Shown: positions 25,387 to 45,101 of the stretch, piece by piece
Layout: the number at the start of each line of letters is the position of its first letter
Numbering within the stretch: position 1 is the first letter of the stretch
Assembly: GCA_012838795.1 (NCBI GenBank)
Contig: DUOO01000003.1
Coordinates: forward strand, 568 to 64,567
Length of the DNA stretch: 64,000 nucleotides
Origin: Clostridiaceae bacterium
Lineage (GTDB): Bacteria > Bacillota > Clostridia > Saccharofermentanales > DTU023
Direction of reading: 5' to 3'
Translations under genes and position numbers: made by a program
The notes under the pieces: model-generated
What the model was told of the DNA's origin: nothing
Seen by the model: only the letters and a program-made list of their open reading frames with translations
Database searches by the model: none

Positions 25387-25413
25387 TGATATTCTTCACA
25401 ACAAAGGTATCTA

Positions 25414-25682
25414 GTCAAAAAAGCCGGCGCTGTGGATCGCTCTTCCGGCAAAATCCCCAAGAGCATATTTTTTGGCACAACAGACCGGATTTCAAATGAG
25501 TTTGTGTCAAAAAAGCCGGCGCTGTGGATCGCTCTTCCGGCAAAATCCCCAAGAGCGTATTTTTTGGCACAACAGACCGGTTTTCAAATGAGTCTGTGTC
25601 AAAAAAGCCGGCGCTGTGGATCGCTCTTCTGGCAAAATCCCCAAGAGCGTATTTTTTGGCACAACAGATCACAATTTCAAAT
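25414..25682. repeat. Tandem array of three near-identical 92-bp units, each a 69-bp imperfect palindrome; same family as 44287-44508
   Basis: GTCAAAAAAGCCGGCGCTGTGGATCGCTCTTCYGGCAAAATCCCCAAGAGCRTATTTTTTGGCACAACAGA starts at 25414, 25506 and 25598. Confidence 0.95.
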
Positions 25683-41692: not shown

Positions 41693-44155
41693 GTGATGAA
41701 AGCTTCTCTGGAATGGATTAAAGATTTTACAGAATATCAGGGAGATATACAAACTTTTGTTGATGGAATGACTTTATCCGGCACCAAAGTCGAATCTTTG
41801 GAATATGAAGGTGCTGACCTGAAAAAACTTGTCGTGGGTCATGTTTTAGAAAAAAATCAACATCCAAATGCGGACCGTCTTTCAGTTTGTCAAGTTGATG
41901 TCGGTACAGAGATTGTGCAAATCGTATGTGGAGCACCGAATGTAGCTGCCGGACAAAAAGTTATAGTGGCTTTGCCGGGAGCGGTCTTGGCAGGCGGTTT
42001 CAAAATAAAAAAAGCAAAAATGCGCGGTGAAGAGTCTAACGGTATGATCTGTTCGATTGATGAATTAGGTTTTTCGGTTCATGAATTTCCCGATGCAGTA
42101 TCCGACGGCATTTATGTATTACCGGACGATTCACCGGTAGGAAACGATGCCTTGGATGTTATCGGTATCGGTCAGGAAATCATTGAATTTGAGATAACTT
42201 CCAATCGTCCGGATTGTTTGGCAGTCGAAGGTTTGGCTAGAGAGACCTCGGTTGTTTTTGATACGAAGTTTACTGCTTTAGATAAAAAACCGAATAATTT
42301 TTCTGATTTAAAATCTGAAGACATTGCCTCAATTGTGGTTGAAGCGCCCGATTTATGTTCAGCTTTTATCGGTAGAATTGTCACAGATGTAAAAATTGAG
42401 CAGTCGCCGATTTGGATGCAAAAAAGATTACGAGCTGCAGGCATGAGACCGATCAACAATATCGTTGATATAACGAACTTTGTCATGTTGAGCTTAGGCC
42501 AGCCGATGCATGCTTATGACTTGGATTTTCTAACCGATCATTCTATTATTGTTCGTCGCGCCGAAGATCAGGAAATGATGACTTTGCTTGATGGAACTGA
42601 AATCAAAATGAACTCGGATAATTTGGTAATTGCTGATACTGCGGGAGCGGTCGGCTTAGCGGGTGTGATGGGCGCTGAGAATTCAGAAGTCCGGGATTCT
42701 ACAAAAGCAATTCTGTTTGAAGCAGCAAATTTTTCCAAAACTTCAGTTCGCAAAACAGCCAAAGAATATAATTTGCGTTCAGAGGCATCATTGCGCTTTG
42801 AAAAAGGTTTGCCGGCACAAAATGCTCAACGCGCAATGGATTATGCATGTTATTTAATTGAAGAATTAAATTGTGGAAAAGTTGCGTCTACTGAAATTAC
42901 GGTTGCCGAGAAGTTCCCCGTATTACACAAGATTGAATACACTGCACAAGGCATTAACAAATTGACCGGGGTAGATTTAAGTATTGAACAAATTAATCAG
43001 ATTCTGAATAAACTTGAATTGGACATTGAACCGACTGAAAACTCAGATATTTATGTTGCAACAATTCCTTATTTCAGGGGTGATCTTAAAATTGAAGCTG
43101 ATTTAGCGGAAGAAGTTGCCAGAATATATGGTTATGACAAAATTGAAAGTCGTTTCAGCAAAGGCAACACACCGACTTTAGGCGGTCGCAATGCAACTCA
43201 ACTTGATGTTGAAAAAATCCGCCGTGTATTAGAAGCTTGCGGAGCATATGAAGCATACACTTATTCATTTGTTTCACCGACCGATGTTGTCAGACTGGGT
43301 TTAGATTCTGAACATGCTTTGAGTCAACAATTAACGATTCTTAATCCGTTGGGTGAAGAGTATTCAAAAATGCGAACTACAATGCTGCCCAGTCTGTTGA
43401 GAGTTATTGAACATAATTTGTCTCATGGTAATTTGAGTGGTGTTTTATATGAATTAGGAAAAACTTATCATCCATTAAATACCTTACCTGATTATGGTTT
43501 GACTGCTGCATATCAAGATGAACATTTGCCTGATGAACGAGAACATGTTACTGTTGCTCTCTTTGATCAAAACTTAAAAGATAGTTCTCAAGGCTATTTT
43601 ATACTAAAAGGAATTATGGAAGAGCTTTTCCGTCATTTAGGCATAGTTGAGTTTCAAGTTTCCAGGGTTGGTCCGGATCATCCCTATTATCATCCGGGAC
43701 AGACAGCATCGGTTTATTTGCCTGATTACACCGACCCGATCGGTTTAATAGGAACAATTCATCCGGGCTCTGCAAAGGAATTTGCTGTTACGCCGAACAC
43801 TTATTTTTTAGATTTGGAATTACATCCCTTGTTGAAAGCCAAACGTGAAAAAATTCTTTTCAAGGCATTACCTAAATATCCTGCAATTACCAGAGATTTG
43901 TCATTTGTTATGCCAAGAGAAAATCTGGTTTCAGAAGTTGAAGCAGAAATTGTCGGTTTGGCAGGTTCTCTCTTGGAATCAATTCGAATTTTCGATGTTT
44001 ACCAAGGTCAAGGAATTGCCGAAGATAAAAAATCAGTAGCGTTTTCGTTAGTATTCAGAGATGCTGAACGCACTTTAAGTGACCGGGAAATCAATCCGAT
44101 CATGCAGAAAATAATTGTTAATATGGCGAAAAGAGATATTCTGTTAAGAGCATAA
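41693..44155 (+). CDS. pheT: Phenylalanine--tRNA ligase beta subunit
   Basis: HPNADRL, CGAPN, TSNRPD, VDITN, RFEKG, EEVARIYGY, RDLSF. Confidence 0.98.
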   Translation: MMKASLEWIKDFTEYQGDIQTFVDGMTLSGTKVESLEYEGADLKKLVVGHVLEKNQHPNADRLSVCQVDVGTEIVQIVCGAPNVAAGQKVIVALPGAVLAGGFKIKKAKMRGEESNGMICSIDELGFSVHEFPDAVSDGIYVLPDDSPVGNDALDVIGIGQEIIEFEITSNRPDCLAVEGLARETSVVFDTKFTALDKKPNNFSDLKSEDIASIVVEAPDLCSAFIGRIVTDVKIEQSPIWMQKRLRAAGMRPINNIVDITNFVMLSLGQPMHAYDLDFLTDHSIIVRRAEDQEMMTLLDGTEIKMNSDNLVIADTAGAVGLAGVMGAENSEVRDSTKAILFEAANFSKTSVRKTAKEYNLRSEASLRFEKGLPAQNAQRAMDYACYLIEELNCGKVASTEITVAEKFPVLHKIEYTAQGINKLTGVDLSIEQINQILNKLELDIEPTENSDIYVATIPYFRGDLKIEADLAEEVARIYGYDKIESRFSKGNTPTLGGRNATQLDVEKIRRVLEACGAYEAYTYSFVSPTDVVRLGLDSEHALSQQLTILNPLGEEYSKMRTTMLPSLLRVIEHNLSHGNLSGVLYELGKTYHPLNTLPDYGLTAAYQDEHLPDEREHVTVALFDQNLKDSSQGYFILKGIMEELFRHLGIVEFQVSRVGPDHPYYHPGQTASVYLPDYTDPIGLIGTIHPGSAKEFAVTPNTYFLDLELHPLLKAKREKILFKALPKYPAITRDLSFVMPRENLVSEVEAEIVGLAGSLLESIRIFDVYQGQGIAEDKKSVAFSLVFRDAERTLSDREINPIMQKIIVNMAKRDILLRA

Positions 44156-44211
44156 ATTAAAAAGATAAAAATAATTTTAATTGATATTTATAGAATATGA
44201 CCCATAATAAG

Positions 44212-44241
44212 TAGCTCAGCAAAATCAGTTTTGCTGAGCTA
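44212..44241 (+). terminator. Probable intrinsic terminator after pheT
   Basis: TAGCTCAGCAAAA-TCAG-TTTTGCTGAGCTA, 13-bp perfect stem. Confidence 0.7.
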
Positions 44242-44286
44242 TATTAATTTGGAGTTTGTTTCATCATACTTCATTTTCAGAAGTTC

Positions 44287-44508
44287 TGTGTCAAAAAAGC
44301 CGTTTCTGCGGATAAAAATCCACAAGATCGTAAATTTTGACATGTTTGACTTGGTAATGTGCCAAAAAAGCCGGTTGTGTGGATTGCAATCCGCAGGACT
44401 GTAATTTCTGACACTGCAGCACCAATATCCAAAGGATCCTGTGCCAAAAAAGCCGTTTCTGCGGATCCGAGCCTACAGTGCACCCGCAGGCTCGTAGTTT
44501 TTGACACG
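44287..44508. repeat. Array of three diverged palindromic units (58, 58 and 69 bp) of the same family as 25414-25682
   Basis: TGTGYCAAAAAAGCCG at 44287, 44358 and 44440, each followed by N4-TGYGGAT-loop-AYCCRCARG-N2-YGTA-..TTYTGACA. Confidence 0.9.
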
Positions 44509-44804
44509 TCTATTTAATACTAATATTTTAAAACTCAGTTTTTTTAATAATTGTCAAATATATTGGTTTTTCTCAAAATAATGAAGAGTTTTCTTGCAAA
44601 TAATTATTATAATATCAAGTGAAAGTATCAGATTATTTTTCGTTTTCAATTTATATCAATTTCTGAATAGTATTTGATTAATACGGACTGATTATATCTT
44701 TGATTATTACTTACATTTATCTGAAATATTGTTTTTATCTTTAGTTTATTTCGAAGAATTAAGAACTGAATAATAAGCACTTTATGAAATTAGGAGGGAT
44801 TATT

Positions 44805-45101
44805 ATGTTAAGTCTGGAAGCTATTTTGTGTGTGCCTTTATGCATGACCATCTTTACTCAAGCGATTTTTTACTTGAAACCGATCGAATTAAGAATCGAG
44901 CAACAAGCAAAAATTATTGCAACAGATCGAATTGCTGAACCGAAGAATCAACCTATATATAAATTTAATTCGGAAAATCAGGTGATTAATCTACAAGTTA
45001 ATCCGCAAAAAGTAAAAGAAATATTATCCCTGGGTTTAGATATTAAAAACAGCTTATGGGACAGAGATAAGATATATCCAGAACAAAATTTGAATAATTG
45101 A
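44805..45101 (+). CDS. Small TadE-like (Flp/Tad minor pilin-like) protein
   Basis: MLSLEAILCVPLCM hydrophobic N-terminus with Glu5 and Pro; AGGAGG SD 7 nt before ATG 44805 (ORF track starts at 44784). Confidence 0.55.
   Translation: MLSLEAILCVPLCMTIFTQAIFYLKPIELRIEQQAKIIATDRIAEPKNQPIYKFNSENQVINLQVNPQKVKEILSLGLDIKNSLWDRDKIYPEQNLNN

Follow-up and report, generated by a model that had tools for sequence, protein, structure and literature searches.

The region that follows pheT in this Clostridia genome carries three inverted-repeat units in a row, whose loops and linkers differ in length by steps close to one turn of the DNA helix. The question raised by the locus is whether such steps hold for the repeat family as a whole and, if so, at which level, RNA or double-stranded DNA, the element would be read. 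The stretch of DNA analysed (hereafter the window, 64 kb in length) lies on contig C54 of the source genome (G000; 2.09 Mb in 63 contigs, 36.7% G+C, 96% complete). An initial annotation, made from the letters of the window, had described units of two inverted half-sites with a fixed asymmetry between the arms, and had proposed that spacer length is constrained while spacer sequence is free, as for a protein array bound on one face of the double helix.

Each unit is composed of a left half-site of 28 nt, a loop, and a right half-site of 28 nt on the opposite strand, and both arms share the core GTGYCAAAAA..CG....TG.GG. They differ at half-site positions 12-14, which read A/G/C in the left arm (110, 107 and 109 of 114 distinct units, respectively) and T/T/A in the right arm (99, 104 and 83 of the same 114), confirming the asymmetry described at first. 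The units are AT-rich and contain A6 and T5-6 tracts, and it is the whole pair of 60-71 bp that forms the palindrome, the 28-bp half-sites showing no palindromes of their own. Units are arranged head to tail with a fixed polarity, from one to five per array, each array beginning with a left arm and ending with a right arm, and the flanks consist of linker-like sequence with no separate end modules defined.

At the pheT locus, the array starts 130 nt after the stop codon of the gene, and its units show periods of 71 and 82 bp, with loops of 4, 4 and 15 nt and linkers of 11 and 22 nt (Table 1). The initial annotation gave the same loops and, taking half-sites as 27 instead of 28 nt, equivalent linkers of 13 and 24 nt. 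The array is a mosaic: unit 2 together with its 3′ linker closely matches a unit of the array in contig C9, and the loop and right arm of unit 3 are close to those of an array at 27.5 kb of contig C31. The 11-nt linker, which resembles a usual 21-nt linker reduced to its first half, is the sole one of this length in G000 and in the sampled part of its congener G008. The same array is present in DNA contigs from other studies, namely X7 (443 nt, with 0 differences) and X4. The second array of the window is flanked by a 94-aa ORF and a convergent PRPP synthetase gene, and a left-arm 16-mer, TGTGYCAAAAAAGCCG, found 7 times in the window at up to 2 mismatches, would be expected 0.10 times, a count of 7 being reached in 0 of 100 shuffles. 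Downstream of the pheT array, a small ORF of 105 aa (MLSLEAILCVPLCMTIF...; window positions 44784-45101) is kept after pheT in the five closest species and has no match in NCBIfam.

Table 1. Coordinates of the repeat arrays and neighbouring features of the window, and of insertion sequences found in or beside repeat units of G008.
Feature	Record	Positions	Strand	Details
pheT (phenylalanine--tRNA ligase beta subunit)	window	41693-44155	+	TIGR00472, 781 bits
Terminator-like hairpin	window	44211-44242	+	separate from the repeat; between pheT stop and array
Repeat array, three units	window	44286-44509		units 44286-44345, 44357-44416, 44439-44509
Unit 1, left half-site	window	44286-44313	+	CTGTGTCAAAAAAGCCGTTTCTGCGGAT; PWM 44.4 bits; repeat family D1
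Unit 1, loop	window	44314-44317		4 nt (AAAA); half-site-to-half-site gap
Unit 1, right half-site	window	44318-44345	-	PWM 26.2 bits
Linker, unit 1 to unit 2	window	44346-44356		11 nt (TTGACTTGGTA)
Unit 2	window	44357-44416	+	left half-site 44357-44384, loop TGCA, right half-site 44389-44416
Linker, unit 2 to unit 3	window	44417-44438		22 nt (CAGCACCAATATCCAAAGGATC)
Unit 3	window	44439-44509	+	left half-site 44439-44466, 15-nt loop 44467-44481 (CCGAGCCTACAGTGC), right half-site 44482-44509
Second array, three units	window	25410-25664	+	15-nt loops, 21-nt linkers, 92-bp period
IS-A copy, G008	L033	2725-4242
IS-A copy, G008	L035	1018-2535
IS-A copy, G008	L039	394-1911
IS-A copy, G008	L040	379-1896
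IS-B copy in or beside a unit, G008	L026	2529-3826
IS-B copy in or beside a unit, G008	L031	1167-2464
IS-B copy in or beside a unit, G008	L041	366-1663
IS-B copy in or beside a unit, G008	L043	352-3022		copy itself interrupted

Half-site PWMs were built from seed matches and applied with a cut-off of 14 bits at first, and of 10 bits for a pooled matrix. At 14 bits or more, 181 half-sites in 36 clusters were detected in G000, one shuffled megabase reaching at most 13.2 bits, and the pooled matrix raised the number to 202, as against 11 in a shuffled genome. These 202 matches fall into 54 clusters, 31 of which are arrays with two or more half-sites, holding 84 complete units, many more than the six units of the window. 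Several arrays map to the ends of contigs or their vicinity, or to contigs of very small size (C18:19-230, C44:34-380, C9:1423-1808 and C48:18884-18943). The surroundings of the solitary half-sites of G000 offered nothing notable. The repeat family probably breaks the assembly, so that the census of G000 is to be taken as a lower bound.

The lengths of the spacers fall into discrete classes. Loops in the whole G000 genome measure 4 nt (23 cases), 5 nt (4), 6 nt (1), 14 nt (2) or 15 nt (54), and its linkers 11 nt (1), 21 nt (47), 22 nt (4) or 32 nt (11). In the case of G008, for which 20 stretches chosen around known arrays were sampled (395 kb of 2.7 Mb), loops of 4 nt (34), 5 nt (5), 13 nt (1), 15 nt (24) and 16 nt (1) were found, together with linkers of 0 nt (2), 20 nt (6), 21 nt (17), 22 nt (3), 31 nt (1), 32 nt (27) and 33 nt (1). 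Three same-strand neighbour pairs with a missed half-site between them are excluded from these counts. None of the 149 loops of G000 and the sampled G008 has 7-12 nt, and none of the 120 linkers has 1-10, 12-19 or 23-30 nt, which leaves loop classes of 4-6 and 13-16 nt and linker classes of 0, 11, 20-22 and 31-33 nt. The prediction that genome-wide lengths would peak about 10.5 bp apart was thus borne out. All four pairings of a short or long loop with a 21- or 32-nt linker occur, and for this reason the frequent period of 92 bp is not conserved as such. Unit periods, tallied on both strands so that most unit-to-unit steps count twice, are 61 bp (2), 71 (2), 81 (16), 82 (15), 91 (6), 92 (153), 93 (7), 94 (1), 101 (1), 102 (2) and 103 bp (8). 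The five classes of 61, 71, 82, 92 and 103 bp agree with a 10.5-bp step (R=0.989), a value equalled by 0 of 5000 random five-period sets, in a null that, like the others used for spacing, draws length classes or gaps independently; the units of one array, like the arrays of one subfamily, are related to each other.

This regularity of length contrasts with the divergence of the spacer sequences. With one representative per array, the mean pairwise identity between arrays is 0.39 for 15-nt loops, 0.44 for 21-nt linkers and 0.57 for 32-nt linkers, as compared to 0.72-0.79 for the arms. Spacer length is nevertheless held within 1 nt at such identities (39-57%), and 78 of the 82 long loops have exactly 15 nt despite a sequence divergence of about 60%. 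The proposal that spacer sequence is free stands in so far as spacers are clearly less conserved than arms, and has to be qualified for the linkers, which retain a GGTTTTCA-like core, and for most long loops, which have a weak ..AGT.. pattern in common and a 5′ start like that of the 4-nt loops (CNNA). Long loops probably trace to one or a few insertions of 11 nt. At least one loop class of G008 (TCACTTCAG..) carries the extra 11 nt on the opposite side of the loop, the 32-nt linker has its extra 11 nt placed inside the linker, and one array of G008 is entirely without linker. The spacers thus record four or more kinds of event, located in different parts of the unit and sized 10-11 or 21 nt, the minimum being a gain of 11 in the loops, a gain of 11 in the linkers, and losses of 10 and of 21. 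Slippage on an 11-nt sub-repeat was considered as the source of the steps and discarded, since direct self-comparison at lags of 10-11 shows no similarity (identity of 0.20-0.21, under the shuffle mean of 0.25). Small insertions and deletions are usual in non-coding DNA, and we read the constancy of loop length despite divergence as probable selection on length, shared descent explaining part of the regularity.

About 12 arm positions are nearly invariant in both G000 and G008, though copies differ by some 25% overall, and the consensus arms of the two genomes are the same at 24 and 26 of 28 positions. Nearly all arm positions are conserved, beyond those of a single helical face, which weighs against the phase reading given below. 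The near-invariant positions point to a sequence-specific recognition of the putative sites, be it by a protein of the cell or by an enzyme that mobilises the units.

A finer measure of helical phase is given by the centres of the A/T tracts, which are phase-coherent in every one of the 29 arrays that have six or more half-sites, at repeats of 10.16-10.28 bp (median 10.22; R between 0.90 and 0.999), whereas coherence at 10.5 bp averages only 0.17 in the same arrays. Among random single periodic arrays, 25% reach an R of 0.9 or more somewhere within 10.0-10.7 bp, so that single arrays are weak evidence and the weight of the lattice rests on the mixed arrays and on the agreement between classes. 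Eight mixed arrays each beat independent uniform gaps (P from 0/3000 to 0.006), and one of them is the pheT-downstream array (gaps of 4, 11, 4, 22 and 15), with R=0.975 at 10.24 bp. By arithmetic from the spacings, successive tracts lie about 19.5, 30.5, 40.5 or 51.5 bp apart, that is 2, 3, 4 or 5 steps of 10.2 bp; with a helix of 10.5 bp per turn, every unit would instead be rotated by some 70-85 degrees from the preceding one. Since the lattice constant is 10.2 and not 10.5 bp, placing all units on the same face needs DNA that is overwound or wrapped on a surface. The one-face arrangement suggested at first for a putative bound protein would therefore hold only for the 10.2-bp geometry and be lost at 10.5 bp.

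All arrays are intergenic, mostly beside the 3′ ends of genes. Flanking genes were called heuristically and crudely, as ORFs of 90 aa or more, and on this basis the 27 G000 arrays with both flanks known lie between convergent genes in 9 cases, tandem genes in 16 and divergent genes in 2, and the 26 arrays of G008 in 10, 15 and 1, respectively, some of the G008 neighbours being IS genes. A divergent context is found for 3 of 53 arrays, against 25% expected (P=0.0002). The carriers of the family are two uncultured biogas-reactor Clostridia, G000 and G008. A 24-nt pattern searched against 185,579 species genomes gave tandem matches in one record only, a Saccharofermentanales MAG that corresponds to G008, and 7 isolated single matches in unrelated taxa. 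With a loose pattern, the 65 genomes of the taxonomic family yielded 123 matches in G000, 116 in G008 and 2 in G001, and the other 62 genomes gave 0-2, the level of a reversed-pattern control. A solitary unit with a 15-nt loop occurs at C124:24276-24342 of the congener G001, which is otherwise without the family.

The pheT-downstream site of G000 carries the array, which is missing at the orthologous site of G001, G006 and G009; this site is filled there by another repeat of about 100 bp (L046, L047 and L048, at about 2100-2500). The corresponding site of G008 holds one seemingly decayed unit (L045:2200-2290), with a half-site of 12.1 bits and an inverted partner recognised by eye. The repeats of about 100 bp form a tandem family unrelated to the hairpin family, with units that contain ..CACACAATTTAAGGTTGTACC..AAAAAGTGTGCA.., and by eye a piece of this repeat abuts two hairpin arrays of G000 (flanks of C48:18844 and C58:1085-1125). 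At a second, probably orthologous site, arrays of the same loop/linker subfamily, with 15/21 spacing, follow a 382-aa gene that is 93% identical between the two carriers, G000 having 2 units (C12:2497-2659) and G008 having 3.5 (L065:10264-10568); the intergenic DNA around both arrays does not align by eye.

A dedicated mobilising enzyme was sought among the Y1 transposases, since a RAYT or other HUH gene flanked by units had been suggested as a partner of the repeats. No such gene was encountered: G000 has no match to PF01797 (RAYT/Y1 transposase), a model that gave the positive control in 6 of 14 genomes, and the only match in G008, a gene that on sequence grounds appears IS200-like, has no half-site of 6 bits or more within the surrounding 6-kb stretch (3 kb on each side). 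A REPtron-like layout was considered for G008 and set aside, as the ORFs between paired arrays (303 aa in L028 and 285 aa in L036) show by eye no transposase features. Two other mobile elements of G008, IS-A and IS-B, are associated with the units. Each is composed of an HTH ORF and an ORF with an rve domain (Pfam), from which they are read as putative IS3-family elements. All four copies of IS-A are inserted at the apex of a unit, with duplications of 3-4 bp (ATC three times and CTAT once). Four of the five copies of IS-B lie in or beside units, two of them directly after the conserved TG of a half-site, and the fifth copy is inside the repeat family of about 100 bp (L042 flanks). No such insertion in units was seen in G000, where a relative of IS-B, 81% identical (C18:11128-12265), lies outside any unit. 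A likeness between the IS ends and the half-site noticed by eye (a C-rich block, A5, and CCGG/GTGG) was rejected, given that PWM scores are negative, with a best value of -6.6 bits.

Among known systems, the BOX element of Streptococcus pneumoniae is a Firmicutes repeat without its own transposase, organised as boxA-(boxB)n-boxC, with a tandem hairpin module in intergenic DNA. The present family shares with BOX a tandem hairpin module of variable number (1-5 copies here), an intergenic location and the lack of a transposase of its own; beside the distinct boxA and boxC ends of BOX, its arrays show flanks of linker-like sequence. MITEs and Correia-type elements are similar in their two inverted arms of about 28 bp, short interior and many copies. 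They are set apart by the tandem arrays with conserved linkers seen here, by the failure to find a parent IS whose ends match, and by the target-site duplications, none of which were seen by eye in the array flanks.

The closest resemblance is to the REP/BIME elements of Enterobacteria and Pseudomonas, in agreement, as to layout and genomic position, with the REP/BIME-like character proposed in the initial annotation. Both occur in many copies between genes, most often at the 3′ ends of these, with mosaic arrays of variable copy number and half-sites that alternate in strand with classes of loop and linker length. REP/BIME elements are described as binding gyrase, IHF and Pol I (excerpt of PMC3333891), and REPs are targets of the IS3-family elements IS1397, ISKpn1 and ISPsy8 (PMC1525189), which IS-A and IS-B resemble in their fixed positions in or beside units. 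The gyrase sites of phage Mu (SGS) and of BIME-2 offer a further analogy at the DNA level: according to PMC6379681, the E. coli gyrase motif has a phased 10-bp variation in G/C, tied to the wrapping of DNA, and BIME-2 elements are strong gyrase sites, which recalls the periodicity of about 10 bp and the location downstream of transcription units found here. That motif is modelled there at 10.7 bp per turn, unlike the 10.2-bp lattice of the present arrays, so that the likeness is an analogy only. Differences from REP/BIME are also clear. The palindrome has 60-71 nt and is made of two 28-nt arms, where a REP is a palindrome of 20-40 nt; GTAG is not conserved, the consensus foot of the right arm being CGTAATTTTT and GTAG occurring sporadically, as in unit 3; no RAYT accompanies the family; and the half-sites are non-palindromic, the polarity is fixed head to tail, the units are AT-rich and the host belongs to the Clostridia. 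Open-access full text yielded nothing on this family or on whole-turn BIME spacers, which is no proof of their being unpublished. In its layout and its behaviour in the genome, the family belongs with REP/BIME/BOX elements; it lacks the defining features of REPs and is set apart by its whole-turn rule.

The level at which the element would be read can be weighed from its folding and conservation. Units acting as 3′-UTR hairpins that stabilise or terminate the upstream mRNA, as for some REPs, would fit the adjacency of arrays to gene 3′ ends, the A-run and T-run that bracket the hairpin, and the folding of the units as RNA, which is better than that of shuffles (z of -1.4 to -5.4 in 8 folds), as for any palindrome. 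In G000, the G-rich strand also carries the left arm in 19 of 24 arrays (P=0.007, by GC skew), a bias that a symmetric DNA site does not need and that counts against a double-stranded reading; it is absent in G008 (15 of 26), and the orientation relative to replication, which the initial annotation had proposed to check, is thus inconsistent between the two genomes. The arms show no covariation, since Watson-Crick matches at 12 variable arm positions equal the shuffled expectation both for the 114 distinct units and for 43 with one per array, and internal mismatches of 3x3 and 4x4 are conserved, with G-U-compatible mismatches on both strands. A canonical terminator already precedes the pheT-downstream array, and in a simple scan for a G+C-rich stem with a loop of 3-8 nt and a T-run directly after it, which called this separate hairpin, 0 of the 6 units of the two window arrays scored as terminator-like. 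Rfam 15 gave no match at gathering score in the whole window, and at E<=1 the array returned only an 18.7-bit chance match to a snoRNA (E=0.87). Moreover, there is no reason at the RNA level why single-stranded loops and linkers should vary by 10.5 bp at a time. The RNA-level reading, already disfavoured at first, is on this evidence improbable. No piece covering the pheT-downstream array was present in the metatranscriptome contigs of two runs (X18 and X20). A 199-nt contig of X20 corresponds to a C9-type array of the family, with a cross-match at window positions 44358-44455, and is a weak hint of transcription of some arrays, or of DNA carry-over. Pairing of the long loop with the variable part of the right arm, perfect in two subfamilies, loses its register in others and was set aside as a family feature, and a coding role was discarded because none of the periods (71, 82 and 92 bp) is divisible by 3. 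The inner TGYGGAT, which is like part of a DnaA box, and the regular spacing would speak for a cluster of DnaA boxes, for something akin to an origin, or for a CRISPR array that has degenerated. Exact TTWTNCACA motifs number 0 in the 7,470 nt of the 31 arrays, only 11 of 179 half-sites end in TGTGGAT, and the arrays are dispersed over many contigs; loops and linkers recur within an array, so that unique spacers are lacking, in line with the initial judgement against CRISPR. These readings are refuted for practical purposes.

What remains to be weighed is a constraint on double-stranded DNA against the mere history of a mobile repeat. The reading that we favour, and hold with about even confidence, is that of a lineage-restricted, non-coding, BIME/BOX-like element under rotational-phase constraint at the level of double-stranded DNA. 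In this view, sequence-specific sites and A-tract bends would follow one another in rotational phase along the array and be recognised by a protein, candidates for which would be a dimer specific for the site or, by analogy, a protein that wraps DNA, such as gyrase. Selection on the rotational register would permit only insertions and deletions of whole turns, and units would spread and mix among loci through recombination, gene conversion or a mobilising enzyme. In the sister species G008, they would be preferred landing sites for the two IS3-family insertion sequences. A more specific version, in which the arrays are a device of chromosome architecture, with a putative protein, gyrase or nucleoid protein that binds the units and wraps the array in a fixed register, so that spacers change by whole turns, is put forward as tentative. 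On the other hand, the length classes may derive from few independent indels, and shared descent accounts for part of their regularity. A selfish or neutral modular repeat of the MITE, BIME or BOX type, with modules that recombination at a few fixed sites would add, remove and shuffle, and whose step of about 10.5 bp would reflect a few historical events or the cut sites of an enzyme, is the main rival explanation, although we consider it rather doubtful. Such a repeat would agree with the abundance of the family in only 2 of 65 genomes and a solitary unit in a third, with its absence from the orthologous pheT sites of G001, G006 and G009 and the degenerate unit of G008, with arrays that are mosaics of units from different subfamilies, with the 2 versus 3.5 units after one orthologous gene, and with the weak pattern common to long loops, which fits few origins; in the BIME model, moreover, TnpA-REP cuts at defined sites and gives discrete linker variants (excerpt of PMC3333891). 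Against it, neither a RAYT nor any other dedicated enzyme was found in G000 or G008, the inverted-repeat ends of the IS3-family elements miss the half-site PWM, and no 11-nt sub-repeat exists. Four kinds of event at different places of the unit would all have happened to be of 10-11 or 21 nt, and length would have remained constant within 1 nt while spacers diverged to 39-44% identity.

The function of REP/BIME-like repeats is a long-standing question, for which arguments at the DNA level come mostly from in-vitro binding in E. coli. The double-stranded DNA reading of the present family makes natural variation itself the experiment, with five period classes and mixed arrays that stay on a single helical lattice as the sequence of their spacers decays. 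If the association of IS-A and IS-B with the units holds, they would add an independent example, the second, of IS3-family elements that target repeats of this type. Should the phase rule fail, the family would be one more lineage-specific REP-like family. If the rule is true, a DNA-structural role of these intergenic repeats of Clostridia would become testable, additions of 10 or 11 bp being tolerated and additions of 5 bp not, and if the arrays are moreover the tentative device of chromosome architecture, this would be the first REP-like family with a helical-phase rule legible from its natural variants, opening a route to the function of such repeats.
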